A stretch of 32,000 bases of DNA from Candidatus Methanoperedens sp. (GCA_041494705.1 JBGQBI010000001.1:90001-122000), one strand, 5' to 3'. Positions 3,591 to 28,905 are shown, numbered from the stretch's first letter. Numbers and translations: made by a program. The notes: generated by a model not told the origin, from the letters alone.

Positions 3591-3608
3591 GGATTGTAAA
3601 TAGCGCAA

Positions 3609-3740
3609 TAACGATCTAAACTTTTCGGTCTATTTAACCAATTTTTTCAGAAGCTGGGTCTTAGTTACAGTTTAATTACACCTTACTTCCAACTTAATTA
3701 TATTCACATAATTAGATCATATTAATTTATATATTATTAA
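3609..3740. promoter_or_regulatory. AT-rich divergent intergenic region between the nuclease and methyltransferase genes
   Basis: This 132 bp is very AT-rich and has several TATA-like tracts (ttaattatattcacataattagatcatattaatttatatattattaa). It lies between divergently oriented starts. Confidence 0.4.
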
Positions 3741-4658
3741 TTGGATCAATATCGATCCTTGCTCGAAATCACAAGGACCGACTACAAACAATTCCTCCAA
3801 TCCCACCCGGAAGTGGAAATCGGAGAAACAAAAATAAAACTCCAGCCAAAGTGGACGATCTCAAAATTCGCCCCCTCCACCTTCACCCCCGAAACCACCA
3901 CGGTATGGAGCTTCCCCGACCGCGGCGACTGGGCTACCCATGTGGGGAATTACAGGGGCAACTGGTCGCCATACATCCCACGCAACCTCATTTTGCGCTA
4001 CACGGCGCCGGGTGAGCTTGTGCTTGACCAGATGGCAGGCTCTGGAACCACGCTTGTGGAATGCAAGCTCCTGGGACGGCGCGCCGTGGGCATGGACATC
4101 AATCCCGATGCCGTCATGGTGGCGCGCAACAGGCTGGATTTTGCTTATACGCCGCTCGATGCTGACTACCAGGCGCCGGAGATTAAAACGTATGTTGGGG
4201 ATGCGCGGTCGCTTGACCTGATTGAGAGTGAGTCCATCGACCTCATCGCCACCCATCCTCCCTATGCCAGCATCATCCCGTACTCGCACAACCGCGAGGG
4301 CGACCTCTCAAGTGTGCACAATATAGCTGAATTCGCAGAGGAGATGCGCCGGGTCGCCGAGGAGTGCATGCGCGTCCTCAAGCCCGGAAGGCACTGCGCC
4401 ATCCTCATGGGTGATTCGCGGCGCAGCAAACATTTCGTGCCCATCACGCCGCGGGTGCTGATGAGCTTTCTTGATGCGGGTTTCATCCTGCGCGAGGATA
4501 TCATCAAGCTCCAGTGGAAGATGAAGAGCACGCGGGAGAAGTGGTTCGGGAAGAAGTACGATTTTTATCTCATTGGGCATGAGCACCTGTATGTATTCAG
4601 GAAGCCGGAGGCGGGGGAGAGGACAACGAGGTTCAGGGAGAGCATGAAGTGGTGGTAG
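3741..4658 (+). CDS. SAM-dependent DNA methyltransferase (N6-adenine/N4-cytosine type)
   Basis: VLDQMAGSGTTLVE is the AdoMet motif I and ATHPPY is a (D/N/S)PPY-type motif IV. The start is TTG. The gene is much more GC-rich than its neighbours: two hand-counted 60-nt lines gave about 60%. Confidence 0.8.
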   Translation: MDQYRSLLEITRTDYKQFLQSHPEVEIGETKIKLQPKWTISKFAPSTFTPETTTVWSFPDRGDWATHVGNYRGNWSPYIPRNLILRYTAPGELVLDQMAGSGTTLVECKLLGRRAVGMDINPDAVMVARNRLDFAYTPLDADYQAPEIKTYVGDARSLDLIESESIDLIATHPPYASIIPYSHNREGDLSSVHNIAEFAEEMRRVAEECMRVLKPGRHCAILMGDSRRSKHFVPITPRVLMSFLDAGFILREDIIKLQWKMKSTREKWFGKKYDFYLIGHEHLYVFRKPEAGERTTRFRESMKWW

Positions 4659-11553: not shown

Positions 11554-12075
11554 ATGTTAAAAACTGCCACAACTGTAGAAAAACCCATCCAGATAAGAGT
11601 GTTTCCACAGCGATTATTAAAGCCCGCTACTGCTGAAAAAGTGTTAAATGAAATTGATCAGGTAGAGGGGGTAATAAGAATGCTCATCAATGGAAAAAAC
11701 CTGCCCAGGAAAGTGACATCAGGACCAGGTACTGGCACAGATGTAAACCATCCTGATAGAATAATCATTCACGTAGGCGACTGCGCATTAGAATTGCACA
11801 TAATGGTTGGAGAGATAGTGGTCGAAGTGGAAGATGAAGGCGCTGTTGAGAACGTCAGAAAAGCATGCGAGAATGTACTTCCCTTCTCATTTGAACTCAA
11901 GCGGGGGCACTTCATAAAGAGAAGACCGACGCTGACCGATTACGGCAAGTACGGGTTCAGGAGCAAAACCGATGAAAGTATCAATCTTGAAGACAATCGC
12001 ATGCTTGGCTTAATAGACCCGCATACAAAAGTGGAAGGCAACATCTGTGTAATCGGAACAGATGGAAAAAAATAA
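11554..12075 (+). CDS. mcrD: methyl-coenzyme M reductase operon protein D homologue (stand-alone)
   Basis: IQIRVFPQRLLKPATAEKVLNEI..LPRKVTSGPGTG..VNHPDR..LPFSFELKRGHFIK..TLTDYGKYG matches the McrD family pattern. GGAG lies 5 nt upstream of the ATG. Confidence 0.8.
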   Translation: MLKTATTVEKPIQIRVFPQRLLKPATAEKVLNEIDQVEGVIRMLINGKNLPRKVTSGPGTGTDVNHPDRIIIHVGDCALELHIMVGEIVVEVEDEGAVENVRKACENVLPFSFELKRGHFIKRRPTLTDYGKYGFRSKTDESINLEDNRMLGLIDPHTKVEGNICVIGTDGKK

Positions 12076-12208: not shown

Positions 12209-13243
12209 ATACAAACGAGTAACGTACAAGCCTGTTATCAGTGCGGTAAATGCACATCTATTTGCCCGATGCGCCGAGTTTCAAAGACTTCGCCGCGCAG
12301 TTCAATTTACAATTCCAATGTCTACGGACTTCTGACAAAAGATATATGGACATGCCTTACGTGCGGATTATGTCCACAGGAATGTCCGCAGCAGGTGGAT
12401 TTCTTAAGCTTCATAAAAGAAGAACGTGAGGGGGGACAGCCGCTTGATGTTGTGCATCTTGGCGTTTTCACCGAGCTTGCTGAACTGAGTTCAAAACTCA
12501 ACGGGAGCAAAATCGAGAAAACCAATGATTCAAAATACGGTTACTTCCCCGGATGCGTGGATTCGCTGGGCTTGTTCTTACACGATGTCAAAACAGATTT
12601 CGGGGAGATTACAACCTCATCGCTTAAACTCCTTGATAAACTCGACATCAAACCCCAGGTATTGCAGATGAAATGCTGCGGCCATGATGCCCTCTGGCAG
12701 GGGAAAAAGGATGTTTTTGACAGGCTTAAAAATTATAATACAAAATACCTGAAAGATAGCGGCATCGATACCCTTGTAACAAGCTGTGCTGAATGTTACC
12801 GAACTTTTTCAAAAGATTACGAGCTTGGAATCAAGGTTATCCATATCTCCGAGCTTCTTGATAAACTCGGATTGAAGATAAACGCTGAAGTAACGTACCA
12901 TGACCCGTGCAGGCTCGGGAGACACATGGGCATTTACGATGCGCCGCGAAATGCCCTGACCTCCAACGGCGTCGTACTGATAGAAATGGAACATTCAAAA
13001 GACAAAGCCCTGTGCTGCGGCGTCAGCAGCTTCATGAACTGCAACGAGCAAACAAAAGCCCTTCGCATAGCCAGAATGGATGAAGCGGCGGCGACAGGAG
13101 CAAATACGCTGATAACAACCTGTTCAAAATGCCTTGCGCACTTCAACTGCCTGAAGAGTGAAAAAGATGCAGTGAAGAAATATGATTTTGATGTTGTTGA
13201 TCTTACAGTATTCCTTGCACGGCAACTGGAGGCGGGCAAATGA
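12209..13243 (+). CDS. HdrD-like fused Fe-S / double CCG-domain protein (HdrC+HdrB-like fusion)
   Basis: It has CLTCGLCPQECP and two CCG-type domains (GYFPGC..CCGHD; YHDPC..CCG..TCSKC). The frame is open upstream of ATG 12269 back to TAA 12185-12187 and encodes the first cluster motif CYQCGKCTSICP. No ATG/GTG/TTG lies there, so the start is set at ATA 12209. Confidence 0.8.
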   Translation: MQTSNVQACYQCGKCTSICPMRRVSKTSPRSSIYNSNVYGLLTKDIWTCLTCGLCPQECPQQVDFLSFIKEEREGGQPLDVVHLGVFTELAELSSKLNGSKIEKTNDSKYGYFPGCVDSLGLFLHDVKTDFGEITTSSLKLLDKLDIKPQVLQMKCCGHDALWQGKKDVFDRLKNYNTKYLKDSGIDTLVTSCAECYRTFSKDYELGIKVIHISELLDKLGLKINAEVTYHDPCRLGRHMGIYDAPRNALTSNGVVLIEMEHSKDKALCCGVSSFMNCNEQTKALRIARMDEAAATGANTLITTCSKCLAHFNCLKSEKDAVKKYDFDVVDLTVFLARQLEAGK

Positions 13244-13806
13244 TTAAAACAAGCGAGCTTGACCCGAATTTCAAATATGAGATAGCTAATGAGCCTGGCG
13301 GCGAAAATATCAAACGCTGTTTTAACTGCACAGGCTGTACAGTAGGCTGCCCGGTCACGGAAATTGATAAAGGTTACAACCCTCGCAAGATAATCCGGAA
13401 AGCCCTGCTTGGGATGCGCAACGAAGTCCTGACAGATGACTCGCTCTGGCTCTGCGCTTCCTGCTACATCTGCTACGAGCGATGCCCGCAGGACGTGAAG
13501 ATAACCGAGGTCATGGGCGCGATAAGAGCCATTGCCCAGCGTGAGGCAAAAGCAGGAAAGATCAAGCTCAACAATCCAAAACCACTTTTTGATAATCTTT
13601 TCATCGACTCGGTCAAGAACAACGGAAGATGGTACGAAGCCGGAGTAAGCGGAATGTTCATGCTCAAGACAAAAGGAATTGGCGGCGTTATTGGTTACGC
13701 CCCGATGGGAATGGAATTGTTCAAGAAAGGGAAACTGAGTATCCTGCCACACAGTATAAAAGGCAAAGACCAGATTAAGCGAATATTCGAGGAAGTGGAG
13801 AAATGA
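13240..13806 (+). CDS. hdrC: heterodisulfide reductase subunit C
   Basis: It has CFNCTGCTVGCP and CASCYICYERCP. ATGA overlap with the upstream gene. Confidence 0.9.
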   Translation: MIKTSELDPNFKYEIANEPGGENIKRCFNCTGCTVGCPVTEIDKGYNPRKIIRKALLGMRNEVLTDDSLWLCASCYICYERCPQDVKITEVMGAIRAIAQREAKAGKIKLNNPKPLFDNLFIDSVKNNGRWYEAGVSGMFMLKTKGIGGVIGYAPMGMELFKKGKLSILPHSIKGKDQIKRIFEEVEK

Positions 13807-14735
13807 AACTTGCGTATTATCCGGGCTGCACGCTGCACGGAACGGCGCGGGAGTATGACGCATCCACAAAAGCAGTAAGCAAAGCAGCAGGTATTGAGCT
13901 TACCGAGATAGAGGACTGGAACTGCTGCGGCGCGCTTGAGGCTATTTTCGATAAGGAGCTGTCCATGGGGCTTTCAGCAAGGAATAACGTGCTGGCGCAA
14001 AAGACAGGGCTTGACCTTGTGGTTCCGTGCAGCATATGCTCGCATAATCTCTCAAGGGCCGATAAAGCCATGAAAACCGATGATGCTTTCAGGGCGAAGA
14101 TCGAAAAGGCACTTGGAGAAAGTTATAAAGGCGTTAAGATAAAACATCTTCTTGATGTCATGGTAAACGATGTTGGGACTGAGGCATTAGCCAAAAAGTT
14201 CGTAAAACCATTAAAAGGCATCAAAGCTGTGCCATACTACGGCTGTCTCCTTGTCCGCCCTTCCGAAGTATCCAGATTCGATAACCCGGAAAATCCGACA
14301 TCCCTTGATAATCTTATAAAAGCCACAGGCGCAGAATGTCTTCCTTTTACCCAGAAAACAAAATGCTGCGGCGGGAATCTACTGATGAGCAAACAGGATT
14401 ATGCGTTCATACTCACGAAGAAGCTGTTCGATGAAGCAAAAGCAGCAGGAGCGAATTGCATCGTGGTCGCATGTCCCATGTGCCACATGCTGCTTGACGG
14501 CCAGCAGTCGATGGTGGAGAAGGCGCATAATACCGTCATCGGATTACCAATACTTTATTTCACACAGCTTATTGGTCTTGCTATGGGACTGAGCGAGAAA
14601 GAGCTTGAACTTGACAAGAATATGGTCTCACCTAAAAGTCTTATCGAATCTATCGGAAAACAGGACGGAAAGAAAGTAGAAACTCAAATTGAAAATAAGG
14701 CAGAACCGAAAGCAGAAGAAGAGGTGGCTAAATGA
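13803..14735 (+). CDS. hdrB: heterodisulfide reductase subunit B
   Basis: It has two CCG domains (YYPGC..NCCGA; PYYGC..KCCGG..ACPMCH). ATGA overlap with the upstream gene. Confidence 0.9.
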   Translation: MKLAYYPGCTLHGTAREYDASTKAVSKAAGIELTEIEDWNCCGALEAIFDKELSMGLSARNNVLAQKTGLDLVVPCSICSHNLSRADKAMKTDDAFRAKIEKALGESYKGVKIKHLLDVMVNDVGTEALAKKFVKPLKGIKAVPYYGCLLVRPSEVSRFDNPENPTSLDNLIKATGAECLPFTQKTKCCGGNLLMSKQDYAFILTKKLFDEAKAAGANCIVVACPMCHMLLDGQQSMVEKAHNTVIGLPILYFTQLIGLAMGLSEKELELDKNMVSPKSLIESIGKQDGKKVETQIENKAEPKAEEEVAK

Positions 14736-17700
14736 AAGGCTCGGTAGCAGTCGTCGGAGGCGGCATAGCAGGGATACAGGCAGCCCTTGACCTGGCGGAC
14801 AGCGGGTTCAAGACCTATCTCATAGAATCAAGACCGAGCATAGGCGGAACAATGTCGCAACTGGATAAAACCTTCCCGACCAATGATTGCGCCATGTGCA
14901 TCCTCTCACCGAAGCTTGTGGAAACGGCGAGGCATCCGAATATTGAGCTGCTATCATACAGCGATGTAAAATCCATATCAGGCAAAGCCGGGGATTTCAA
15001 AGTAAAAGTTGTTAAAAAAGCGCGGTACGTGGACGAAACGAAATGTACCGGATGCGGCACCTGCACAGAGAAATGCCCGACAAAAGTACTGGACGAATAC
15101 AATGCAGGTATGAGTAAGCGCAAAGCCATCTATATTCCTTTTGCACAGGCAATCCCCAGGGTTGCGACTATCGATGCTTCAAAATGCATATATCTCACAA
15201 AAGGCAAATGCGGCGTATGCAAGAAAGTATGCGGACCAAAAGCAGTGGATTATGAGCAGAAAGACAAAGAGGTCGAGCTGGACGTTGGTTCGGTCGTTCT
15301 TGCGACCGGCTTTAAACCTTTTGACCCTTCGGTACTGAAACAGTACAGGTTTGACCATCCTGATGTCATCACCTCGCTTCAGTTCGAGCGCCTCCTGAGT
15401 GCGAGCGGTCCGACGCAGGGGCATGTCACAAAGCAATCAGACGGCAAAGTCCCGAAGAAGATCGCTTTTATCCAGTGCGTGGGTTCGCGCAATCCGCGAA
15501 TAGGCAGGAAGCACTGCTCTTCTGTTTGCTGCATGTATGCTACAAAGGAATCCATAATCGCGAAAGAGCATGACTCCGAGCTTGATATTACCATATTCCA
15601 CATTGATATACGTGCATTCGGCAAGAACTTTGAAGAATTCTATAACCGAGCGCAGAGGGAGTACGGCATCAAATACATCAACTCCCGACCGCCTGAAGTT
15701 ATCGTTGACGCAAATAATGCTCTCTCTTTGAAATACGAGGATTTCAATACAGGCGACCTTAAAACCCAGAATTTCGATATGGTAATCCTTTCCATAGGGC
15801 TTGACCCTGCGGATTCTACCCGGACGCTGGCGCAGTCGTCAGGTATCGCGCTTGACGATTTCGGTAACATCGTCACAACCGTTGAGAATCCTGTGGAGAC
15901 AAGCGTTCCCGGCATCTATGTTTGCGGTGTCGCCCAGGGACCAAAGGATATTCCTGACACCGTAGCGCAGGCAAGTGCAGCCGCGGCAAAGGCTGCCGCA
16001 CTTTTATCTGCTGAGCGCGGAACGCTGATAAAAGAGAGAAAGTTCCCGGATGAGAAGCCCCTCTCACCTGAGCCCAGGATAGGTGTATTCGTCTGCCACT
16101 GCGGGATTAACATAGGCAGCGTGGTCAATGTCCCGAACGTGGTAGAGTATGCCAAGACTCTTCCGAACGTGGCGCACGCACAGGAAATGCTGTATGCATG
16201 TTCCTCAGATTCGCAGGTTACGATTAAGGAAACCATAGCAAAGAATAACCTGAACCGCGTAGTGGTGGCGTCGTGCACGCCGCGCACACACGAGCCTCTG
16301 TTCCAGAATACCTGTCGTGAGGCAGGGCTTAATCCCTATCTTTTCGAACTCGCCAATATCCGCGAACACTGCTCCTGGGTACATATGAAGGAAAAGGAGA
16401 AAGCCACTGAAAAGGCGAAGGGAGTCGTGCAGATGGCCGTGGCAAAATCAGCCCTTTTCCAGCCCCTGTACAAGCAAAAAGTATCTCTTATCAACAAGGC
16501 GCTGGTGCTCGGAGGCGGCGTAGCTGGCATGACCGCGGCGCTTGATATTGCGAATAACGGTTATAGCGTGACACTCGTCGAGAAAGAAACAGAACTTGGC
16601 GGGATGCTTAGAGAAATGACAGAGTTGTACGACGGAAAGAAGCCCTCCGATGTATTAAAAGAACTCATCCGGAAGGTCAATGATAATAAAAATATCGTAG
16701 TCGTAAATGAGGCGAAACTCATCAAGGTCGAAGGCTATCTTGGTAACTTTAAGGGAATCATCCAGGCAAAAGGAAAAGAGAAGACTGTGGATTTCGGGGC
16801 TGCTGTTGTTGCAACAGGCGCACGGAACTTTGAGCCTGCCGGATTATTCAACTACGGAAAGGATTCACGCGTAGTTACGCAGGCACAGCTTGAGAAAATG
16901 CTCGGTAATAGTATCAGCGCAAAGAATATCACAATGATACAGTGCGTAGGAGCCCGCAATAAAGAAAGAGAGTATTGCGGGAGAACATGCTGCATCGATG
17001 CAGTAAAGAATGCTATAAGGATTAAAAAAGCAAACAGCAGTGCCAACGTCTATGTCCTGTACCGCGACATGAGGACGTACGGGGTCATGGAAAGGCTGTA
17101 CGAAGAAGCCAGAGACCTTGGCGTAATATTCATCAAATACGATGCTGAGAAACTGCCCGCAGTTCAGGATGGAGCTGTAACAGTTCACGATTCCATGCTC
17201 AACGAAGACATTGAAATCGCATCAGACCTCGTGGTGCTGAGCACTCCTTTAGTGGCCGGAGAGAACGAGGAAATAAACCAGTTGTTCAAGATACCTCTTG
17301 ATAAGAACAAATTCTTCCTCGAAGCGCATCCAAAACTGCGGCCTGTGGATTTTGCCACGGACGGTGTTTTCCTGTGCGGAAGTGCGCAGGCGCCCAAGCT
17401 CATGGATGAGGCAATATCGCAGGCAAGCGCGGCTGCCTCCCGTGCATGTACAATCCTGTCCCGCAAGTTCATAGAAACAGAGGGTGCGGTATCAATTGTC
17501 AACGAGGCAAAATGCATAGGCTGCGGGACATGCGTTACAATGTGTCCGTATAATGCGCCTTCATTGTATGATGTGACCGTGAAAGTGGAAGAGGTCACAT
17601 ACACGACAAAGAAATCAAAAATAAACCCGGCTGCCTGCAAGGGATGCGGTTCATGTGCCGCCGCTTGTCCCGCCGGAGCGATAACTGCCCAGCATTTCTC

Positions 17701-17791
17701 TTCAAAAGAGATAGGCGAGGCAATAGATGCTTTTGATAAAGGTGTCCGGAGCATTTCGTTAGAGAAGGGTGTCGTGGAGGTGACAATATGA
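14732..17791 (+). CDS. hdrA: HdrA-family flavoprotein, 1019-aa tandem (two FAD-binding modules)
   Basis: Module 1 has VVGGGIAGIQAALDLA, FPTNDCAMCIL and the inserted ferredoxin CTGCGTCTEKCP. Module 2 starts near nt 16080 with VFVCHCGINIG, then LGGGVAGMTAALDIA and the C-terminal CIGCGTCVTMCP..CKGCGSCAAACP. Confidence 0.9.
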   Translation: MKGSVAVVGGGIAGIQAALDLADSGFKTYLIESRPSIGGTMSQLDKTFPTNDCAMCILSPKLVETARHPNIELLSYSDVKSISGKAGDFKVKVVKKARYVDETKCTGCGTCTEKCPTKVLDEYNAGMSKRKAIYIPFAQAIPRVATIDASKCIYLTKGKCGVCKKVCGPKAVDYEQKDKEVELDVGSVVLATGFKPFDPSVLKQYRFDHPDVITSLQFERLLSASGPTQGHVTKQSDGKVPKKIAFIQCVGSRNPRIGRKHCSSVCCMYATKESIIAKEHDSELDITIFHIDIRAFGKNFEEFYNRAQREYGIKYINSRPPEVIVDANNALSLKYEDFNTGDLKTQNFDMVILSIGLDPADSTRTLAQSSGIALDDFGNIVTTVENPVETSVPGIYVCGVAQGPKDIPDTVAQASAAAAKAAALLSAERGTLIKERKFPDEKPLSPEPRIGVFVCHCGINIGSVVNVPNVVEYAKTLPNVAHAQEMLYACSSDSQVTIKETIAKNNLNRVVVASCTPRTHEPLFQNTCREAGLNPYLFELANIREHCSWVHMKEKEKATEKAKGVVQMAVAKSALFQPLYKQKVSLINKALVLGGGVAGMTAALDIANNGYSVTLVEKETELGGMLREMTELYDGKKPSDVLKELIRKVNDNKNIVVVNEAKLIKVEGYLGNFKGIIQAKGKEKTVDFGAAVVATGARNFEPAGLFNYGKDSRVVTQAQLEKMLGNSISAKNITMIQCVGARNKEREYCGRTCCIDAVKNAIRIKKANSSANVYVLYRDMRTYGVMERLYEEARDLGVIFIKYDAEKLPAVQDGAVTVHDSMLNEDIEIASDLVVLSTPLVAGENEEINQLFKIPLDKNKFFLEAHPKLRPVDFATDGVFLCGSAQAPKLMDEAISQASAAASRACTILSRKFIETEGAVSIVNEAKCIGCGTCVTMCPYNAPSLYDVTVKVEEVTYTTKKSKINPAACKGCGSCAAACPAGAITAQHFSSKEIGEAIDAFDKGVRSISLEKGVVEVTI

Positions 17792-18291
17792 ATGAGGAAG
17801 CGGTCAAAGCGAACCCCGCGCAGGCGGGGAACGGCTGGGAACCCAATATCCTCGCTTTCTGCTGCAACTGGTGTTCGTATGCGGGGGCAGACCTTGCGGG
17901 AGTAAGCCGTTTCCAGTATCCCCCGACAGTCAAGATTTTGAGAGTGATGTGTTCAAGCAGGGTCGAACCTTCGTTCATCCTGAAAGCATTAAATGACGGA
18001 GCTGACGGCGTTCTGATAGCCGGTTGCCACATAGGTGATTGCCACTATATCGACGGCAACAGGAATGCCGAGGTCAGGATTAATAATACTAAAAAAGCGC
18101 TGGCAAAACTGGGATTTGATAAGAGGCTTCGGCTTGAGTGGATATCAGCCAGCGAAGGATTGCGATTCTCAGAAGTTATTCGAGATTTTACAGAAGAGAT
18201 TAAAAAATTGGGTCAAAACCCGGTCTTTGATGAACCTGTCAAAAAAGACCGGAGAACATTAGGTTCATCAAACAAGGAAGTGAAGAAATGA
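17788..18291 (+). CDS. mvhD: MvhD-like [2Fe-2S] protein (copy 1)
   Basis: It has [38 protein letters not shown] overlap with the upstream gene. Confidence 0.9.
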   Translation: MNEEAVKANPAQAGNGWEPNILAFCCNWCSYAGADLAGVSRFQYPPTVKILRVMCSSRVEPSFILKALNDGADGVLIAGCHIGDCHYIDGNRNAEVRINNTKKALAKLGFDKRLRLEWISASEGLRFSEVIRDFTEEIKKLGQNPVFDEPVKKDRRTLGSSNKEVKK

Positions 18292-20297
18292 GCGATATTA
18301 AAGGTACTGAAAATAAAGGTGCCGTTCCAATAGATAACGACGAAAAGCGGGTAGGTGTGTTTGTTTGCGAATGCGGTGTGAATATCGGAGGCGTAGTTAA
18401 CACAAAAGCTGTGGCTGAATATATCGGAACTCTGCCGGGCGTGAAAGTAACCTCCGTGAATAAATTCACATGCTCTGACTCAGGCCAGGCTGATATCCAG
18501 TCGAAAATAAAAGAACATAATCTCAACCGCGTTGTAGTAGCGGCTTGTTCGCCAAAGACACATGAACCAACATTTCGTGCTTGCATCGAGCAGATGGGAC
18601 TGAACCAGTACTTCCTTGAATTCGTAAATATCAGAGACCACTGCTCATGGATACACATGTGGGAGAAGGAGAAAGCCACCGAGAAGGCAAAAGACCTTAT
18701 CCGCATGGGAGTTGAGCGCGCAAAGCTGCTTGAACCGCTTCAGGCAAGCGAAGTCCCTGTGACTGATAAGGCGCTTGTTGTGGGCGCCGGCGTTGCAGGA
18801 ATGCAGGCTGCTCTTGACCTTGCTGATATGGGTTTCCAGGTCTATCTTGTTGAGAAGGAACCCTCTATCGGCGGCAGGATGGCAAGGTTTGACAAGGTTT
18901 TCCCAACCAATGACTGTTCTATTTGCATCCTCGGTCCAAAGATGGTAGAGGTTGCAAGGAACAAGAATATCAAGATAATGAGTTATTCGGAAGTGAAAGC
19001 GGTTGAAGGGTATGTGGGTAACTTTAACGTGAAAATCGAGCACAAACCAAGATACCTCGATATTGAAAAATGCACAGGCTGCGCAAAATGCAGCGAGGTC
19101 TGCCCTGTCGAAGTGCCTTATGACTTTAACGAGGGCTTCGGGACGCGAAAAGCTATATTTGTCCCCTTCCCGCAGGCAGTCCCACTTCGCGCAGTCTTAG
19201 ACAAAGAGAACTGTATTTCATGCAAAGCGTGCGCAAAGGCATGCGAACGCGGCGCAATCAATTACGATATGCAGCCGAGTTTTACGGATGTCAATGTGGG
19301 CGTCATCATCGGCGCAGTCGGATTCAAGACTTATGACCCTGAACCCAGACACGATTTCGGCTACGGGTTATATGATAACATCATAACAGCTATGGAATTT
19401 GAGCGGCTTCTTAACGCAGCAGGTCCCACAGGCGGGCATGTGGTAAGACCGTCTGACTGCAAAGAACCGATACGCGTTGGATTTGTGAACTGCGTTGGTT
19501 CACGCGATAAGAACACCAACATTTACTGCTCAGGCGTATGCTGCATGGTTACCATAAAGAACGCGCAGCTCCTTAAAGAGAAGCGCCCTGAAACTGACCA
19601 GACGATAATGTATATAGATATCAGGACACCCTTCAGAGGCTACGAGGAATCATATAACAGGTCGCGAAACCTTGGCGTGAAATTCCTGCGCGGAAGACCC
19701 GTGGAAGTGAAAGAAGACCCTGTTACCAAGAATATCAAGGTGCGGGTTGAGGATACACTTGCAAATGAGATACGAAATCTCGAATTTGATCTGCTTGTCC
19801 TTGCAACCGGCATTGTCCCGAATGAAGGAATTAACCAGATACAGCAGTTATTGAAATTATCAAAAGCAGCGGATGGCCTGCTTATGGAAGCGCATCCTAA
19901 ATTGAGACCTGTGGATACGACTATCGATGGCGTGTTCCTCGCGGGTTGCGCTTCAGGGCCAAAGGATATTCCCTATGCAGTGTCGCAGGGAAGCGCATGC
20001 GCAGGCCGCGCCACGATTCTTCTCAAAAATAAGAAAGCCATAACGGAAGGCATCACAGCCGTTGTGAATCCTGATGTATGCGTGGGATGCGGCGTGTGTA
20101 TACCCATGTGCCCGTTCCAGGCAATAAAGATGGATGAGAAAGAAGGCAAGGCAAATGTGATGAAGGCGCTGTGTAAAGGCTGCGGGACATGCGTAACAGC
20201 CTGCCCCACAGGCGCCCTGGAGCAGAGCCACTTCAAGAATAACCAGATCCTTGCGCAGGTCAAGAACGTGTTCAGGTTCCAGGAGGTAGCGGCATGA
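18288..20297 (+). CDS. hdrA: heterodisulfide reductase subunit A (canonical architecture, 669 aa)
   Basis: It has [38 protein letters not shown], the inserted [23 protein letters not shown] and the C-terminal [24 protein letters not shown]. Confidence 0.92.
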
Positions 20298-20755
20298 GTG
20301 CAGAAGCTGTTGCGGCTCAGCCTGCTCCTAAGAGTAATGGCTGGGAACCCAAAATCGTGGCGTTCTGCTGCAACTGGTGCTCATACGGAGGCGCCGACAG
20401 CGCAGGCATGGGCAGGTTCCAGCAGCCGGCATCGACAAGAATCATTCGCGTTATGTGCTCGGGACGAATAGACCCACTGCATGTGTTCAACGCATTTCTG
20501 GAAGGTGCAGATGCTGTGCTTGTCACGGGATGCCATATAGGCGATTGCCATTATGTAAACGGGAACGATAAGACCAAGATTAAATACAAATTCCTTGAGA
20601 ACATGACGAGAGAGTTGGGAATTGAGAAGGAAAGGCTGCAACTGAACTGGATATCAGCAAGCGAGGGAGAAAAGTTTGCCAATTTCATCCGTGATGTTAC
20701 AGAGCAGATAAAAAAACTCGGACCAAGTCCGCTTAAACCCGAGGGGGTGGCGTAA
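20294..20755 (+). CDS. mvhD: MvhD-like [2Fe-2S] protein (copy 2)
   Basis: It has [34 protein letters not shown]. By eye it is roughly half identical to copy 1. Confidence 0.9.
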
Positions 20756-21906
20756 TGCAGAACGGCGAAATGTTCGTTGGCTGGTCAACGAAAGAGGATG
20801 TCAGGAAACGAGGCGGCTCAGGCGGTCTTGTTACGTCCGTACTCGCGGCTGCGCTTGAGAAGAAATTGGTCGATGCTGTCGTGGTATTAAAGAAAATCAA
20901 CGAGTTTGAAGCGGTACCGATAATAACCTCTGATGTGAATGAGGTGCTGAACTCGGCAGGCTCTTTGCACTCAGTTCCGAGCAACTTTGCAAAACTCATC
21001 GCCAATAAGGATATGAAAGTGGCCCTTCCGGCGAAGGGTTGCGATGTGCGCGGGGTTATCGAGCAGAGCAAGCGCAATGCCGTAAATCTTGATAATACTT
21101 TTACAATCGGTCTTAACTGCGGCGGGTCAATGCACCCAGTCGTGACGCGTGAGATGCTTGAAGTCATGTACAAGATCAAGCCAGAAGATGTTCACGGCGA
21201 AGAGATCGAGAAAGGAAAACTCATTTTCGAGACAAAGGATGGAAAAGAGCACGCAATAACCATTGACGAGCTTGAAGAGAAAGGTTATGGACGCAGGGAG
21301 AGCTGCCGGTATTGCACGATCAAGATACCGAACAACGCCGACCTTGCGTGCGGGAACTGGGGCGTGACCGGAGACCTTGTTGGCAAAGCCACTTTTGTAG
21401 AGATAAATTCAGAAAAAGGAGCAAAGCTCCTTCAAAATGCCATCGACGCCGGATATGTGCAGGTGCAAAAGCCTGATGAGAAAGGTGTTGCGGCGCGCGC
21501 CAAGATTAAAGGCGTTATGGAAAGTCTTGGCAAGAAATGGAAGGATAAGGTATTTGTTCCAATCGATAACAGGCTTGAGTATTTCAGGAAAGAGCTTGAG
21601 CACTGCATCGACTGCGGCGCCTGCAAAGCAGTGTGCCCCACATGCTCATGCGGGGATGTTTCAAAATGCACCGAATTCCACTTCCGCGGCGATGCTTACA
21701 AGATGTCCATGTATCATCTGGTGCGCTTTTTGCACCTTGCGGATTCATGTATCGGGTGTGGGCAGTGCAGCGATGTGTGCCCTGTTGATATTCCGCTCAC
21801 AAGATTATATAGGCGCTTTGCAAATCCTGTGCAGGAGCAGTTAAAGTATGAACCTGGCATGGATATGCGAAAGCCCCCTTATTTTGAGGTGAAGTTAAAT
21901 GAGTGA
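20755..21906 (+). CDS. FrhB/FdhB-family (F420-binding type) Fe-S flavoprotein with a C-terminal 2x[4Fe-4S] domain
   Basis: It has the GGSGGLVTSVLAAALEKKLVDAVVV N-terminus typical of the FrhB/FdhB/FpoF family, CRYCTIKIPNNADLACGNWG, and then CIDCGACKAVCPTCSC..CIGCGQCSDVCP. TAATG overlap with mvhD. Confidence 0.8.
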   Translation: MQNGEMFVGWSTKEDVRKRGGSGGLVTSVLAAALEKKLVDAVVVLKKINEFEAVPIITSDVNEVLNSAGSLHSVPSNFAKLIANKDMKVALPAKGCDVRGVIEQSKRNAVNLDNTFTIGLNCGGSMHPVVTREMLEVMYKIKPEDVHGEEIEKGKLIFETKDGKEHAITIDELEEKGYGRRESCRYCTIKIPNNADLACGNWGVTGDLVGKATFVEINSEKGAKLLQNAIDAGYVQVQKPDEKGVAARAKIKGVMESLGKKWKDKVFVPIDNRLEYFRKELEHCIDCGACKAVCPTCSCGDVSKCTEFHFRGDAYKMSMYHLVRFLHLADSCIGCGQCSDVCPVDIPLTRLYRRFANPVQEQLKYEPGMDMRKPPYFEVKLNE

Positions 21907-22303
21907 GGATTTTAGTTTGATTAAACCGCAGATGAAAATAGATGAACGCGGATTTGCTCTGAATTTATGTGAGTCTCTGGAGAAAAAACACGGAGATGCA
22001 GAGGCAAAGGGAGGTTTTTCAGGTTTATCTCCTTTGCGTCTTTTTAGTGAAATTCATGATAAAAATCTGAATGGCGATTCCTTGGATCAGGAGCGTTTAG
22101 CCAAAGAAGACCTAGAAGAACTGAGAAAATCGTCAGGATTAACTCCTTTGCATCCTGGTGGCGAGATTCATAATAGGAATTTGAATAGTGTGTCTCCGGA
22201 AGAAGGATTTCCAGCAGCAGAGAACATAGAAACGCTGATAAATTATTCGGGATTAACTCCTTTGCGGCCTGGTGGCGAGATTTACAAAAGAGGTTTGATT
22301 TAA
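21899..22303 (+). CDS. 134-aa ORF composed of repeat modules; protein-coding status doubtful
   Basis: It fits exactly between its neighbours: an 8-nt overlap upstream, and its stop directly abuts the next ATG. Its sequence consists of modules found elsewhere only in intergenic DNA, plus three ~55-65-nt direct repeats. Confidence 0.3.
   Translation: MSEDFSLIKPQMKIDERGFALNLCESLEKKHGDAEAKGGFSGLSPLRLFSEIHDKNLNGDSLDQERLAKEDLEELRKSSGLTPLHPGGEIHNRNLNSVSPEEGFPAAENIETLINYSGLTPLRPGGEIYKRGLI
22019..22302 (+). repeat. three direct repeats at ~115-nt spacing (GGATTAACTCCTTTGCGGCCTGGTGGCGAGAT-type)
   Basis: The units start near 22019, 22134 and 22249. They encode GLSPLRLFSEIHDKNLN / GLTPLHPGGEIHNRNLN / GLTPLRPGGEIYKRGL. 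The core CCTTTGCGG..TGGCGAG resembles the CCTTTGCGGTGAGCG of element A. Confidence 0.8.
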
Positions 22304-23719
22304 ATGACCGATAATGTTTATTCAACAATATGCCCGGGCTGCAATTTTGGCTGCGGATTATATATTCGAGAGAACGGAAAACTTGAAGTGGATTTCAGGA
22401 AATCCTCTCCTGCCAATGCCGGGAAGCTTTGCAGGTTCGGAATGAGCCTCTTCCGCCTCTATACACCTGTTAAATCGATGGTGGATGGAAAGGAGACCTC
22501 GCCTGAAGAAGCTGCAAAGGAAGCAGCTAAGAGAATATCGGCAAGCAAGGGTTCCACAGCTTTCCTCTCGTTCGGCAACACCACAAGCGAGGAGCTTCTT
22601 GCATTCCGGAAAGTTGCTGAATCCTATTTATGCACGGGAGCAAATTTCGAGGAGCTTCCAAAAGACACATATCAGACCCTGAGCGTGGGAATACCATATA
22701 TTGAAATCGAAGCTGCAAAACATATCGTGCTCTTTATCGACCCATATGAGCAGTATCCGCTGATAGTCCGGCGCCTGCTTTCAGCCAGGAAGAAAGGAGC
22801 GAAGATAACTTCGGTGTGGTGGAAGGATTTACCCTTAGCAGATGAGAACATCCGACCTGCTGATGTTTCAAAGTTGCAGCTCACAAAAGATTCGCTTGTT
22901 ATTGCTGATTTTCACCCGCTTTCGGATATTGAGCAGGTTAAGAGCGTACTGTCTCTTGTAAAGAACGCAGGCGCTAAAGTAACATTCCTCAAGCCTTTTG
23001 TGAATTCAACAGGTGCATATTTATTGTATAAGGATGCCAAGCAAAAATCACTGGCGCAACTGGTTGAGGATATAAATAAAGGGACGATAAAGACATTGTT
23101 CTGTCTCGAATCCGACCCGTCCGCGCTGATACCATCTGAGACTCTTTCAAAACTCACGAATCTTATTGTCCAGACAGGGCAGGCAGTTTCGGCAAATGCA
23201 AATGTGGTAATAGCCCATGAGCCGCTGTATAAGAAGAGAGGCACTCTCATCAACAACGAGGGCAGGGCACAGGCGCTTGGCGGCGCGGGAACGAGCGGGC
23301 TTGATGCGCTTGGAATCATAGCTGGCGCCAAATTTGATTTCAATGTTCTTCATGAATCCGTTAAAAAGTCTATTGGAATTGCGTCAGTCGATGAATTCAC
23401 AATCCCGAAATATGATAGACCTGCTTACGGCGCGATACAGGCAGCGGCGAAACCGGCTGAAGCCAAAACGGCACTTGTAAGCGTGTACAACCCGTTCATG
23501 TGGTTTAATCTGGGAGACGATAACGATTTTGTGGAATTGAATCTGAATGTTGTGAGGGCGCTCAAGCTCCTGAAGGGCGGGACACTCAAGATAAAGTCTA
23601 ACGGCAGTGCCATTGAAAAGAAGTTCAAGGTGGCGCCTGTGCAGGATAATATTTTGCTGGCAGGCAGGAAGTTTGGGATTGAAAAGGGGATTCTCACGCC
23701 GGTTGAGATTTCGAGGTGA
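22304..23719 (+). CDS. compact molybdopterin-oxidoreductase-family protein (FdhA/FwdB-like N-terminus plus C-terminal MopB beta-barrel-like domain)
   Basis: CPGCNFGCGLY..KLCRFG is the N-terminal 4-Cys cluster site. It also has FLSFGNTTSEELLAFRKV, GAKITSV, ANVVIAHEPLYKKRGTLINNEGRAQ and the C-terminal DFVELNLNVVRALKLLKGGTLKIKS. At 471 aa it is clearly shorter than typical FdhA. Confidence 0.7.
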   Translation: MTDNVYSTICPGCNFGCGLYIRENGKLEVDFRKSSPANAGKLCRFGMSLFRLYTPVKSMVDGKETSPEEAAKEAAKRISASKGSTAFLSFGNTTSEELLAFRKVAESYLCTGANFEELPKDTYQTLSVGIPYIEIEAAKHIVLFIDPYEQYPLIVRRLLSARKKGAKITSVWWKDLPLADENIRPADVSKLQLTKDSLVIADFHPLSDIEQVKSVLSLVKNAGAKVTFLKPFVNSTGAYLLYKDAKQKSLAQLVEDINKGTIKTLFCLESDPSALIPSETLSKLTNLIVQTGQAVSANANVVIAHEPLYKKRGTLINNEGRAQALGGAGTSGLDALGIIAGAKFDFNVLHESVKKSIGIASVDEFTIPKYDRPAYGAIQAAAKPAEAKTALVSVYNPFMWFNLGDDNDFVELNLNVVRALKLLKGGTLKIKSNGSAIEKKFKVAPVQDNILLAGRKFGIEKGILTPVEISR

Positions 23720-23724
23720 TAGGT

Positions 23725-24012
23725 ATGGCAGAAGAGATAGCTATTATAAAAGCGGAAGCAGCGCCGGAAGTTAAAGCTGAAGCGCCAAAAGCAAAGGAAG
23801 CCGACCCGAACAAGGAGTTTGTGGACGGCATTATGGGTGAGATGGCTCTAAAAGGCGCATCAAAAAAGAGGCTTGTCAAGAAGCTGGCTGAGCAGTATGG
23901 TTTTGATAAACAGAAGGTGCTGTTTAGGCTAAGGCGAGCGCTGATTACGGAGAGGTATGCCGGAGCATGCGGAAGCGGGGCATTGAGTTCAGTTGGCTGC
24001 GCCGCGCCCTGA
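23725..24012 (+). CDS. 95-aa Lys/Ala/Glu-rich protein of unknown function
   Basis: The ATG at 23725 is preceded by GGTGA with 5-nt spacing. It reads MAEEIAIIKAEAAPEVKAEAPKAKE..KRLVKKLAEQYGFDKQKVLFRLRRAL. The last ~10 codons lead into, and the stop overlaps, the left edge of repeat element A copy 2. Confidence 0.45.
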   Translation: MAEEIAIIKAEAAPEVKAEAPKAKEADPNKEFVDGIMGEMALKGASKKRLVKKLAEQYGFDKQKVLFRLRRALITERYAGACGSGALSSVGCAAP

Positions 24013-24179: not shown

Positions 24180-25073
24180 TCAACGATTCCTAAGATACTT
24201 CGTATTTTCTTTCAGGTATCCTTTGAAAAACCATTGAAGAAAAATCATCTCATCCTTTTTTATCTGAGACCGCTCCAGAGCGCTATAATAACCTGCTCTT
24301 TTTTCATAAGGTATATTGAGCATAGGGAAGCCATGCCTATTTAAAACAAAGTTCATCATCAGCCTGCTTATTCTTCCGTTCCCGTCTGCGAAAGGATGAA
24401 TAGTTACAAGTTTCAGATGGACAAGCGCCGCAAGTTCTAAGGTGTGCATTTTGTCTTTATTTTTGCGATACCATCTGAAAAAATCCATTAGCAGAGGATA
24501 TATTTCTGCGGGAAAAGGCGGTGTAAATCTACTTCCTGCAATCGTCACCTGATGCTGCCTTATCATCCCTGCTATGTCTTTTTTCGTGTTCTCAAATAAT
24601 TTTTTGTGAAAATACAATATGAGATCAAGCGATAAGTCCTTTTTGCAATCCAGCGCCTCATAAAATACGCTCCGGTGCGCTTCCGCCTCTTTTACATCGC
24701 GCATAGGTTTTGCATTCGGGGTTATGCTTTTTTCGAGTAGCAAAGAGGTTTCCCTGAATGTCAGGGTTGAGCCTTCTATCCTGTTCGTATCATAAGTGAA
24801 TTTGATAGCAAAGTTCTCCAATTCTTTTTCCTGCGCCGATGGAGGGATTGTTTTTCCCTGCGCTGAATATTCTTCTTTTATTTTGTCAAAAAGGTCAAAC
24901 CATTTCTCCCTGTACATCTCAGAAACAAACTGTCTTTTCAATTCTTCGATGTTTTGCGGCAACGTTTTTCCAAGGTATTTTTCCTTCTTTTCCACCCTGC
25001 CGTTTTCACGGAAGCTGTGCTCGATATAATAATATACCTGTTTGCCTATCGTCTTTTTTCTAATTGCTACCAT
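24180..25073 (-). CDS. Fic-family protein (AMPylase-type) with an internal inhibitory motif
   Basis: It has the Fic motif HPFADGNGRISR. Upstream, TNRIEG fits the (S/T)xxxE(G/N) auto-inhibition motif. Confidence 0.9.
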   Translation of the reverse strand: MVAIRKKTIGKQVYYYIEHSFRENGRVEKKEKYLGKTLPQNIEELKRQFVSEMYREKWFDLFDKIKEEYSAQGKTIPPSAQEKELENFAIKFTYDTNRIEGSTLTFRETSLLLEKSITPNAKPMRDVKEAEAHRSVFYEALDCKKDLSLDLILYFHKKLFENTKKDIAGMIRQHQVTIAGSRFTPPFPAEIYPLLMDFFRWYRKNKDKMHTLELAALVHLKLVTIHPFADGNGRISRLMMNFVLNRHGFPMLNIPYEKRAGYYSALERSQIKKDEMIFLQWFFKGYLKENTKYLRNR

Positions 25074-25086
25074 AAGACTATATTAT

Positions 25087-25130
25087 CCCTACAAGATTAT
25101 AAGTTTTATGGTTTTTTATAAATTGTAGGG
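25087..25130 (-). promoter_or_regulatory. putative fic promoter: a TATA-like box bracketed by an 8-bp inverted repeat
   Basis: The minus strand reads CCCTACAAtttataaaaaaccataaaacttataatcTTGTAGGG, ending 14 nt upstream of the fic ATG. The function is inferred. Confidence 0.3.
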
Positions 25131-25165
25131 GTAAGTAACCAAGGGTATGCCACGCATACCCTAAC

Positions 25166-25306
25166 ACTGCACCGCCGGGTTCGTACAAGTTCGTATCAGT
25201 TCGTTGTTTTTTATAAAAAATTGTCGCCGGAGCTTTGCGCTCTTCGCGCCCTTTGCGGTGAGCGTGGACTTGTGGTTGCATCGGTTTCCTATCGGCGCCA
25301 CAACTG
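25166..25306 (+). repeat. element A copy 3 (full length, ~140 bp, same orientation)
   Basis: It is near-identical to copy 2 over the GTTCGTA x3, TTTTTTATAAAA, CTTTGCG and ..CATCGGTTTCCTATCGGCGCCACAACTGT segments, with one extra CTCTTCGCG unit. The hairpin GGGTATGCcacGCATACCC (25143-25161) precedes it. Confidence 0.9.
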
Positions 25307-25379
25307 TTGAAATAATTTAAGTAATACGTTTGCCAGCCCTTAGTATTAATTAAATATATCCTGACACATAAAGCATGAT

Positions 25380-25639
25380 GTGCCATACGAAATCATAATC
25401 CCCGATAAAATTCAGAGGATCATCGATAAGAAGTGTGATAATCACTTAAAAAAGCGGCTGTTCACAAAATTACTAAAACTCGAAAACGCTCCGCAATCAT
25501 ACGCCAAACCCTTACGCGTTCCTCTCGCAGGCATCTGGGAAATCTATTTTGAAAAGAGATGGCGTGTGCTCTTGAAATAGATGAAAATAACAAATCAATC
25601 ATTGTTGTTGGATTCAAACACAAAGATGAAATGACTTAG
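25380..25639 (+). pseudogene. RelE/ParE-family toxin gene interrupted by a 1-nt frameshift
   Basis: Frame 1 reads MPYEIIIPDKIQRII..LAGIWEIYFEKRWRVLLK and stops at 25578-25580. The expected C-terminus EIDENNKSIIVVGFKHKDEMT continues from 25574 in another frame to TAG 25637-25639. One extra T at 25572-25573 would restore ..RVLFEIDENNK... Confidence 0.65.
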
Positions 25640-27253: not shown

Positions 27254-27685
27254 TCATTGTGACTTTAATTTTCTAAAATATTCCATCAAGCTTTCAAGAC
27301 TCGTAACCTCTTCTTTTACAAGAGAAATTTTTGCAGTAATATTCTTGAACTCGGGAATCCCTTTTCCTCCCGTATCGCCCGATACAAGAACATTTGACCA
27401 CGGGCTGTTCACCATGAAGGCTACACCGCCGGGTTCATCTCTTTTAGACTCCCTGACCTCCACGACGATGCTTCCATTATTATTGGCGACCTTTACTCTG
27501 TCTCCCGACTTCAATCCCATTTTCGCCATGTCGTTTTTACTCATCATGATGCAGGCGGACAGTTTTTCATAATCCTTTCCAAACCTGTCGCGTTCCTGCG
27601 CCTCGACCTGGAAAATATCCCTGTATGTAGTGATTTTTATCTCGTATTCCGGATTTTTCAGGAACTTTCCGACATCGATTCCCAT
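27254..27685 (-). CDS. fwdD: formylmethanofuran dehydrogenase subunit D (MopB beta-barrel domain protein)
   Basis: The 143-aa protein has GLKSGDRVKVANNNGSIVVEV..PGGVAFMVNSPWSNVL. TAATG overlap with fwdB. Confidence 0.75.
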   Translation of the reverse strand: MGIDVGKFLKNPEYEIKITTYRDIFQVEAQERDRFGKDYEKLSACIMMSKNDMAKMGLKSGDRVKVANNNGSIVVEVRESKRDEPGGVAFMVNSPWSNVLVSGDTGGKGIPEFKNITAKISLVKEEVTSLESLMEYFRKLKSQ

Positions 27686-28896
27686 TAAAGCGCCTCCATC
27701 AATCGAGTGAGCAGTTCCTCATCAGTTGGGTAATCGCTTTCAATCATCTTTGACAGCCCGACTTTTTTCCCGTCCATCCTGACGGCGGTGCCGCCTGATT
27801 CAACTCCCGACACAGCGCATGGGATTGTTACAGCGGCTATTTTTGATGTCATGGTAACACACGGGTCTATGCATATCACCGGTATGGATGCAAGGTGCCG
27901 GATTAATGAACGCGGCAGGCTTGATAGCGGGTCAGAACCTGCAACGAGCAGGGCGTCTATGCTTTTTTCCCGAAGCGCCTCAATGATTGAATATTTATCG
28001 TCATGAACCGCTGTGTCATGAAATCTAACCCGGTTCACGAACCCGGTTTCTTTGAACAAATTCTCGTTAAAGCCGCGCATATTGTAATGGCCCACCATGG
28101 GCATAATGTGGAAATTCGGGAGCTTATCTGCCAGTGAAACCAGGATATCAAAATCCTCTTTTATCGAATATGTTAGCCCGATGCCCACACAAATCACCCC
28201 GAACTCGGCTTTTTTCAATATGGCTGCAAGCTCAAGAATCTTTTTTGGCTCATACGCGGGGACTTTTCCGGAGAGAGCGTCTATCAGGGCAAGGATAAAT
28301 TCCCTGTCGCCCTTTGGCTGTATCCTGTAAAAGTGCCCCTTGCATATCTTTGCTGTATTGGATTCGCGCACATCTATCGCTATGGCAATCCTGTCTTCTT
28401 CGTAGCCACGCTGTCGGGATTCTCCGCGGGGAAAATATGAGAACCGGGAGAGATGCCGCGGCTGTGAGTCCTGAGCATCCGACCCCCAATAGACAAGAAC
28501 ATCAGCTTTGTTCCTTACATCTTCAAGCGTGCATGTTCTGAATTTTTTCCGGAGTATCTTTTCTATCAGGAGCCCCTGGCAAAATGATGATGTATCGTCG
28601 ATTATCGCGCCCAGTTTCTTTGCCAGTTGGATTCCTTTTACCTGGGCTTCACATGTTGAGTTGCTAAAGCCAAAAAGCATTGGCGCTCTGGCATCCTTAA
28701 GTATCCCGGCAGCTTTCTTGATGGCACTTTCAATATCAACAGGCTTTTGGGCTATGGTCGGCGCCAGCCTGTTAGTGCAGCCCTTTATCCGCGCAGCCCC
28801 CCGCCTGCATGCATGTCTCGTCTCTTTTATCCTGTTGTTTTCAACTGTGACCTCAATATCATCGCATAACAGTGCGCATCCGGGGCAGGTTGCCAT
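27685..28896 (-). CDS. fwdB: formylmethanofuran dehydrogenase subunit B (Cys form)
   Basis: It has the MATCPGCALLCDDIEV N-terminus and a DDTSSFCQG region. The ATG at 28896 (GGTG 5 nt upstream) is preferred over the GTG at 28905. There is no in-frame TGA. Confidence 0.8.
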   Translation of the reverse strand: MATCPGCALLCDDIEVTVENNRIKETRHACRRGAARIKGCTNRLAPTIAQKPVDIESAIKKAAGILKDARAPMLFGFSNSTCEAQVKGIQLAKKLGAIIDDTSSFCQGLLIEKILRKKFRTCTLEDVRNKADVLVYWGSDAQDSQPRHLSRFSYFPRGESRQRGYEEDRIAIAIDVRESNTAKICKGHFYRIQPKGDREFILALIDALSGKVPAYEPKKILELAAILKKAEFGVICVGIGLTYSIKEDFDILVSLADKLPNFHIMPMVGHYNMRGFNENLFKETGFVNRVRFHDTAVHDDKYSIIEALREKSIDALLVAGSDPLSSLPRSLIRHLASIPVICIDPCVTMTSKIAAVTIPCAVSGVESGGTAVRMDGKKVGLSKMIESDYPTDEELLTRLMEAL

Positions 28897-28905
28897 TAAA
28901 AACAC

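Follow-up and report, generated by a model that had tools for sequence, protein, structure and literature searches.

Does an HdrA chain with two flavin cores, neither of which is complete, amount to one functional unit or to two? The question is raised by a gene in a 32,000-nucleotide stretch of DNA from Candidatus Methanoperedens sp. (GCA_041494705.1, JBGQBI010000001.1:90001-122000), referred to here as the window. Its positions 14732-17791 (plus strand, as are all features of this gene) hold a type II (fused) hdrA, 'HdrA3', an intact open reading frame (ORF) that is uninterrupted throughout and encodes 1,019 residues. In a first-pass annotation, the protein had been described as two complementary, individually incomplete HdrA modules, and as a covalent pseudo-heterodimer standing in for the HdrA homodimer. 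The analysis presented here bears out the two-module description and makes it probable that the fused chain is an intramolecular mimic of the HdrA dimer, with exactly one complete bifurcation (or, in a methanotroph, confurcation) unit.

Among solved structures, the best match was HdrA from Methanothermococcus thermolithotrophicus (5ODC), to which the fused protein aligned in three pieces: residues 6-371 with 147-509 of 5ODC (flavin core and inserted ferredoxin), residues 447-600 with 3-156 (N-terminal domain and start of the core), and residues 846-999 with 502-647 (end of the core and C-terminal ferredoxin). This three-piece match reveals the architecture of the protein. Pfam placed two separate flavin adenine dinucleotide (FAD)/Rossmann regions at residues ∼4-46 and ∼589-719 (Pyr_redox_2/FAD) and ferredoxin motifs (Fer4) at residues ∼98-167 and ∼922-985. 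Both modules were also aligned to the canonical HdrA (669 residues) encoded in the same operon, which has all five parts, as the first-pass annotation had stated.

In this alignment, module 1 (residues 1-426; 14732-16009) has neither the N-terminal domain nor the C-terminal ferredoxin. It consists of a flavin core, thioredoxin-reductase-like by alignment and Foldseek comparison, with GGGIAG at residues 9-14. FPTNDCAMC (14873-14899), present in module 1 only according to both the 5ODC and the canonical HdrA alignments, provides the Cys pair Cys53/Cys56, which equals Cys197/Cys200 of 5ODC and Cys202/205 of the M. marburgensis protein. It is followed by the inserted ferredoxin (15023-15241; Pfam Fer4 and alignment), with ligands for two [4Fe-4S] clusters (Cys105/108/111/115 and Cys152/160/163/167), and by the core [4Fe-4S] motif CVGSR...C...CC (Cys249/262/266/267; 15476-15532), which the alignments equate with cluster HA4. 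A poorly conserved linker of ∼20 residues (427-446; 16010-16069), marked by lowered model confidence and by split genes in other genomes, joins the modules.

Module 2, which had been estimated to begin at about position 16080, close to the boundary found here, opens with an N-terminal, MvhD-like domain (residues 447-585; 16070-16486; 203.6 bits to 5ODC 3-156). This domain contains the motif VFVCHCG and, as ligands of the 'shuttle' [4Fe-4S] cluster, Cys455/457/490/515. The flavin core that follows (residues 586-912; 16487-17467; delimited by alignment to canonical HdrA) retains GGGVAG (residues 594-599), E617 and the core cluster cysteines Cys738/749/753/754. At the FPTNDC position it has LREMTELYDGKK (16607-16642) and no Cys pair, and at the position of the inserted ferredoxin only six residues and no ferredoxin. 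Module 2 therefore does not retain all ligands of a normal HdrA. It ends with a C-terminal 2×[4Fe-4S] ferredoxin (residues 913-1019; 17468-17791), identified by Pfam, by the alignments to 5ODC and canonical HdrA, and in the structural model, with a β-hairpin insertion of ∼20 residues between its two cluster motifs. Both modules contain equivalents of Glu356 and Lys409 of 5ODC, namely E219/K272 (module 1) and E721/K759 (module 2).

The two cores are ∼27-30% identical to each other, and compared with the neighbouring canonical HdrA, identity is ∼42% for module 1 and ∼33-41% for the core of module 2. All NCBIfam equivalog scores were below the respective cut-off (HdrA, 1009 of 1100 bits; HdrA2, 755 of 1400; hdrA_Methbact, 714 of 1300), each collected in three stretches. 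The fused protein is a member of the HdrA family and no equivalog of canonical HdrA or HdrA2. With cores only ∼30% identical, the halves come from different HdrA classes, and a recent internal (tandem) duplication is rejected on the same grounds. The sequence thus identifies the gene as the product of a fusion between two different HdrA classes; the N-terminal half would derive from a core-only class and the C-terminal half from a class with both terminal domains and without Cys pair and inserted ferredoxin.

Such a fusion is not new. HdrA homologues of more than 1,000 residues in anaerobic methanotrophic archaea (ANME) have been recognized as fusions of two HdrA genes, complementary with respect to Cys197 and the N-terminal domain, and named 'HdrA3'; an HdrA2/3-FdhAB cluster was noted across ANME and Methanolobus (Chadwick et al, 2022; PMC9012536). 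In a classification of 1,152 HdrA sequences, this kind became type II, class A3, with 139 sequences, derived from the fusion of an A6-like and an A12-like HdrA (Lyu, Yu and Lu, 2025; PMC12054007). The same operon, with an optional extra type I hdrA and hdrD, was described there, and its molybdopterin protein argued to be non-catalytic. An HdrABC-FrhB confurcating complex in Methanoperedens had first been proposed by Arshad et al (2015; PMC4683180), and a 2026 paper names the cluster in Ca. Methanoperedens BLZ2 hdrCBA3-mvhD-hdrA-mvhD-fdhAB (PMC13079737). By its sequence features, the gene in the window is this published HdrA3, or type II HdrA class A3, of Candidatus Methanoperedens. Shared with it are the two flavin cores in one chain, the class A6-like N-terminal half (no N-terminal domain, no C-terminal ferredoxin), the C-terminal half with both terminal domains and without Cys197 and inserted ferredoxin, and an operon with an FdhB-like gene, a degenerate molybdopterin protein, an extra type I hdrA and an hdrD-like gene; there is no substantive difference. 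The order of the halves, however, is given by Chadwick et al (section 15) with the N-domain half, lacking Cys197, first, whereas the Cys-pair half comes first in the window and in 99 aligned fused homologues, in agreement with the A6-then-A12 scheme of Lyu et al. The order in the earlier text looks like a slip of wording. The fusion as such and its interpretation as self-pairing were therefore already published for methane-oxidising archaea (2022, 2025).

How one chain could do the work of a dimer is suggested by Mvh-Hdr-Fmd cryo-electron microscopy (PMC13580544). There, a mobile arm made up of both terminal domains of one HdrA (the N-terminal one with shuttle cluster HA3) and of MvhD passes electrons to the partner's FAD (FAD′), past the partner's Cys pair (Cys202′/205′) lying between MvhD and the partner FAD; Cys16, His68 and Asp71 of MvhD are implicated at the contact between arm and core. 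The high-potential electron moves from FAD′ via HA4′ of the partner to HdrC/B. Its low-potential counterpart goes to HA3, and this cluster then swings back toward the inserted ferredoxin of the partner (HA5′/HA6′). Module 2 contains exactly the arm set, and module 1 exactly the core set, of this mechanism, which amounts to one complete unit per chain. In the fused protein, module 2 would thus provide the mobile arm, comprising the shuttle cluster of its N-terminal domain, its C-terminal ferredoxin and a docking site for one MvhD encoded by the neighbouring gene. Module 1 would be the working core, comprising FAD with E219/K272, Cys53/Cys56, HA4 as the core cluster leading toward HdrC/HdrB, and the inserted ferredoxin as the low-potential exit at which low-potential electrons are exchanged. 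Left over would be the flavin core of module 2 itself, 'spare' beside the single complete unit; its dinucleotide-binding motifs and core cluster are kept, but arm, Cys pair and low-potential exit are all missing from it. The anatomy of the sequence, how it is conserved, the pattern of fusion and fission and the stoichiometry of the genes are shown directly by the data; we infer how the folded modules pack, that the flavin of module 1 is the bifurcating one, and which substrates are used.

The complementarity of the two modules extends beyond this genome. The closest relatives of the fused HdrA have 1,017-1,027 residues and 83-94% identity, and those named by source are all from Candidatus Methanoperedens; next are proteins from ANME-2 (Methanogaster) and Methanosarcinaceae, at ∼60% identity. 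When one genome for each GTDB species was scanned, at least 599 related stretches emerged, the best 80 loci of which were examined. They come from archaea (the Methanoperedens family, ANME-2, Methanosarcina, Methanimicrococcus, Bathyarchaeia, Thermoplasmata, Methanomassiliicoccales, Archaeoglobi), including Asgard archaea (Thor-, Hermod- and Promethearchaeota), and from others such as Chloroflexota, Desulfobacterota, Clostridia and WOR-3. At 79 of these 80 loci, a single ORF was colinear with the fused HdrA for a length exceeding 800 residues. With few exceptions, these 79 ORFs contained the Cys-pair motif once, within their first half, and the N-domain motif once, within their second half, with ferredoxin motifs as expected, so that the same architecture and module order were found in many archaeal and bacterial phyla. 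Altogether, the 80 loci contained 105 fused genes, 86 of them directly followed by mvhD. A second sample was the top 150 among representatives of clusters at 50% identity, from a library of 1.84 billion proteins. Most of these were colinear and ∼1,000 residues long; others, of 1,300-1,500 residues, had an insertion in the first half.

The two halves also occur as separate adjacent genes, in the same order, in 20 places within the 80 loci. The first of these genes encodes ∼430 residues, with the Cys-pair motif in 16 of 20 and the ferredoxin motif in all 20. The second, 555-626 residues long in 18 of 20 (full range ∼555-760; the two larger calls overlap the first gene), starts with the N-domain motif and contains the C-terminal ferredoxin in 19 of 20. 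The two genes are mostly 1-10 nucleotides apart. Adjacent halves kept in the same order constitute fusion/fission evidence that both act together.

A constant association of the fusion with a second hdrA-mvhD pair, which the first-pass annotation had put up for survey, was not observed. Among the 80 loci, the arrangement hdrA3-mvhD-hdrA-mvhD-fdhB was restricted to four of the Methanoperedens family (L001-L003 and L009). The minimal cluster elsewhere (Methanosarcina, Methanimicrococcus and others) is hdrC-hdrB-hdrA3-mvhD-fdhB-fdhA-like, lacking the second hdrA-mvhD and having one hdrCB per fused hdrA.

Some loci hold several copies. On the chromosome of a Methanomassiliicoccales metagenome-assembled genome (MAG; CP070739.1, locus L023), four fused hdrA genes (1,003-1,021 residues) stand head to tail, each followed by mvhD, and a fifth is truncated where the locus begins. 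Two or three fused copies, or a fused copy beside a split pair, are present at several loci of Bathyarchaeia, Thermoplasmata and Desulfobacterota. Contigs with fused hdrA-mvhD filed as Bacteroides salyersiae (L057), a Burkholderiales MAG (L061) and an Enterobacteriaceae MAG (L078) are probably mis-binned because these are improbable hosts for an anaerobic enzyme.

Conservation of the residues involved differs between the modules. In 99 fused proteins, E219 and K272 of module 1 were each 100% conserved, as were Cys53/Cys56, the eight cysteines of the inserted ferredoxin and those of HA4. The equivalents in module 2 were conserved to 83% (E721) and 75% (K759), at 99-100% conservation of its GxGxxG motif and HA4 and 100% conservation of Cys455/457/490/515 in its N-terminal domain. 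As motif expressions under-called distant members of the 150 cluster representatives, an alignment-based count was used for these, covering 114 representatives; both Glu and Lys were retained in 94% of them in module 1 versus 54% in module 2. At the level of sequence, module 1 thus tolerates far less change in the bifurcation signature than module 2 does, which supports module 1 as the working core.

A further motif, H-x-K-L-R-P (residues 866-871; 17327-17344), corresponds to His522-Pro527 of 5ODC and is a conserved feature of canonical HdrA. Fused proteins have it in module 2 only, and each of the five invariable letters (H, K, L, R and P) was 98-100% conserved in the 99 near relatives. A role of this motif in trans on the flavin of module 1 was considered and dropped; it is kept in only 33% of the 114 broader representatives, and lies in a low-confidence loop of the structural model (predicted local distance difference test, pLDDT, below 50 for residues 865-875). 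A literature search on Lys524, within this motif, found nothing.

The AlphaFold2 model of the fused HdrA, built from a 32-sequence alignment, reached a pLDDT of 80.2 and a predicted template modelling score (pTM) of 0.82, so that the global arrangement is predicted with confidence. The linker is neither helix nor strand in the model (pLDDT 62 for residues 431-440). Each module matches solved HdrA by fold: with Foldseek, the model aligned to 5odc_A with a template modelling (TM) score of 0.77 (on the target) and 36% identity, and via its module 1 core to 8rvu_a, an arm-less core chain, with a TM score of 0.92 and 49% identity. The covalent pseudo-heterodimer fits all in silico evidence gathered and is supported by it, namely, by the complementary halves at 79 of 80 loci, the 20 split pairs, the mvhD gene after 86 of 105 fused genes, the pTM and the mobile-arm mechanism.

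Several points weigh against one unit per chain. No fused HdrA is among the PDB sequence matches (the search that returned 5ODC), and biochemistry of type II HdrA is stated to be absent by Lyu et al (PMC12054007). Module 2 of the protein in the window does keep E721, K759, the FAD-binding glycines and the core cluster, so that a second active flavin is possible. With two HdrB-type proteins and another complete HdrA-MvhD pair among the products of the operon, the complex that assembles may be larger and may operate in a different way. Finally, the direction of electron flow and the assignment of F420 are taken from gene context.

Some of these points lead to the reading favoured by Lyu et al (2025), who suggested two possible bifurcation events for type II HdrA: both flavin cores would be competent and carry out two reactions of flavin-based electron bifurcation (FBEB) or confurcation (FBEC). 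The potential might possibly be lowered in two stages, with the type I HdrA encoded next to it and the HdrD-like subunit also taking part. Consistent with this proposal (PMC12054007), both modules keep GxGxxG, the E356/K409 equivalents and the core [4Fe-4S] motif, and the two HdrB-type proteins of the operon are matched by two MvhD. The flavin of module 2, however, has neither Cys pair nor inserted ferredoxin. It is also out of reach of a mobile arm because module 1 has neither terminal domain; under the mechanism of PMC13580544, it would have no entry route and no low-potential exit. Across the family, the E/K signature is dispensable in module 2 and not in module 1, and most loci have a single mvhD per fused gene. 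Since the Cys pair and the low-potential exit are missing and E/K is relaxed, the evidence from sequence leans against a canonical second site in module 2, and two bifurcating sites are unlikely; with E721, K759, the FAD motifs and the core cluster kept in this protein, a non-canonical site is compatible with the data.

Alternatively, module 1 would bifurcate, and the uncovered flavin of module 2 would exchange hydride with F420H2 or NAD(P)H, or convert between two- and one-electron transfer to feed its own core cluster. The strict retention of dinucleotide-binding motifs and core cluster in module 2 would be explained in this way, and there are parallels. For HdrA2 of M. acetivorans, absence of the partner arm was suggested to free space near FAD for F420 (PMC12054007), and the HdrA of Sporomusa ovata, which has two cores and for which an NAD(P)H-binding domain is not predicted, shows a weak NADH:benzyl viologen activity (PMC9430772). 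Nevertheless, the FdhB-like F420 subunit encoded in the operon makes a direct F420 site unnecessary, a nicotinamide- or F420-binding motif was not identified in module 2, and the proposal is purely inferential; we consider it very unlikely. Taken together, that the spare core is a second functional site of either kind (direct hydride entry from F420H2/NAD(P)H or a second bifurcating flavin) and no relic, so that, with the adjacent type I HdrA-MvhD and the HdrD-like subunit, a two-stage bifurcation/confurcation machine results, is likewise given a low probability.

That two ordinary tandem hdrA genes were merely joined by a missed stop or frameshift in assembly or sequencing, as gaps of just 1-10 nucleotides in the natural split versions of other lineages might suggest, is rejected with near certainty because the frame is open throughout, the linker region is colinear in the alignment, and the intact frame recurs in more than 50 independent Methanoperedens homologues of the same length (1,017-1,027 residues) and in another 98 fused ORFs whose assemblies are independent, complete chromosomes (for example, that of Methanimicrococcus stummii) among them.

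The reading as one intramolecular unit can be set against related systems. With the canonical HdrA homodimer of HdrABC-MvhAGD (5ODC, 7BKB, 8RVU, 9SW2), the fused protein shares the fold of every domain, the cofactor motifs and the functional unit, one protomer's arm serving the other protomer's core. The homodimer, in contrast, has two arms, two Cys pairs and two inserted ferredoxins, whereas the fused chain has one of each; its cores are ∼30% identical to each other and covalently joined, and its electron partner is likely an F420-type FdhB module instead of the hydrogenase of the canonical complex. Tandem split pairs (HdrA5/6 and HdrA12/13 of Chadwick et al), the arrangement seen here in 20 places, consist of the same complementary halves; the order of the genes is unchanged and mvhD comes next, but there are two polypeptides rather than one. 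Furthermore, the HdrA proteins of acetogenic MetFV-HdrABC-MvhD methylene-tetrahydrofolate reductases (1,487 residues in Moorella thermoacetica, 942 in S. ovata; PMC9430772) show the same order, beginning with an additional flavin core at the N terminus; after it come an MvhD-like N-domain, a second core that lacks an inserted ferredoxin, and finally a C-terminal ferredoxin. They differ in that the first half of the Moorella protein contains a GltD/NAD(P)H insertion, in that the S. ovata protein lacks the inserted ferredoxin, and in having MetFV rather than FdhB-like partners, in bacteria. For S. ovata HdrA, the signature was reported in only one of the two cores, as E160/K216 in the N-terminal part (PMC9430772).

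An asymmetric HdrA that is a single unit would help to dissect flavin-based electron bifurcation, as each accessory element is present once and the canonical dimer's two-fold ambiguity is avoided. In ANME-2 and Methanoperedens, the enzyme probably has a central part in the recycling of ferredoxin, F420 and coenzyme M-coenzyme B thiols during reverse methanogenesis. The field is aware of it and has flagged it as a structural target, so that the window contributes another member and no discovery. What the survey adds is that the architecture reaches well beyond methane-metabolising archaea, that split and fused forms coexist, and that constraint on the signature is far stricter in module 1 than in module 2.

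The operon around the fused hdrA (all genes on the plus strand) reads hdrD-like, hdrC, hdrB, fused hdrA, mvhD, type I hdrA, mvhD, frhB/fdhB-like, a gene for a 134-residue repeat protein, and fdhA-like, and its content equals that of the clusters described in PMC12054007, PMC9012536 and PMC13079737. ATGA start/stop overlaps join hdrB, hdrA3, mvhD, hdrA and mvhD, and the start of the frhB-like gene shares one base with the preceding stop. Upstream of the fused gene (12269-14735) lie the hdrD-like gene (324 residues), hdrC (188 residues) and hdrB (310 residues), assigned by Pfam (CCG, Fer4) and Cys patterns. In the product of the first (12269-13243), two CCG domains come after a single CxxCxxCxxxC (Cys29-39); among NCBIfam families it was most similar to TfrB, far under the cut-off. 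From this pattern it is classified as HdrD-like rather than as a plain second HdrB.

The mvhD gene whose start overlaps the stop of hdrA3 (17788-18291; 167 residues; Pfam FlpD, 4.4e-53) is followed by the type I hdrA and the second mvhD (153 residues), together at 18288-20755 (Pfam, NCBIfam and alignment). C29, H81 and D84 of MvhD, equal to Cys16, His68 and Asp71 in the numbering of PMC13580544, are retained in both copies. The last part of the operon (20755-23719) encodes an FrhB/FdhB-like F420-type subunit (383 residues; Pfam FrhB_FdhB_N/C), the 134-residue repeat protein and the degenerate FdhA-like protein (471 residues; 22304-23719). In the latter, Pfam recognized an N-terminal Molybdop_Fe4S4 domain only, and its score against Fdh-alpha was 37 bits (cut-off 666), which agrees with the proposed 'non-catalytic Molybdop' scaffold (PMC12054007).

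The 134-residue ORF (21899-22303), between the FrhB/FdhB-like and FdhA-like genes, contains three copies of a motif like SGL(T/S)PL(H/R)PGGEI(H/Y)xRxL and had zero matches in Pfam or NCBIfam; homologues occupy the same position in two loci of the Methanoperedens family (L002 and L009). Directly after the FdhA-like gene, a 98-residue ORF (23716-24012) is present, with no family matches. Directly upstream of the operon is a stand-alone mcrD (11554-12075, plus strand; Pfam MCR_D, 8.4e-52), and the window contains no other mcr gene.

Elsewhere in the window, positions 27254-29364 (minus strand) encode FwdB (406 residues; TIGR03129, above the cut-off) and an FwdD-like protein (143 residues) of formylmethanofuran dehydrogenase, adjoined by a gene for a 152-residue Fe-S protein with an RnfB/CdhE-like N-terminal FeS domain. 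At 2628-4658 and 24180-25386, respectively, a NucS-like nuclease gene adjoins a DNA methylase gene, which may form a restriction-modification pair, and a Fic/DOC gene is preceded by an ORF of 102 residues, which may form a toxin-antitoxin pair.

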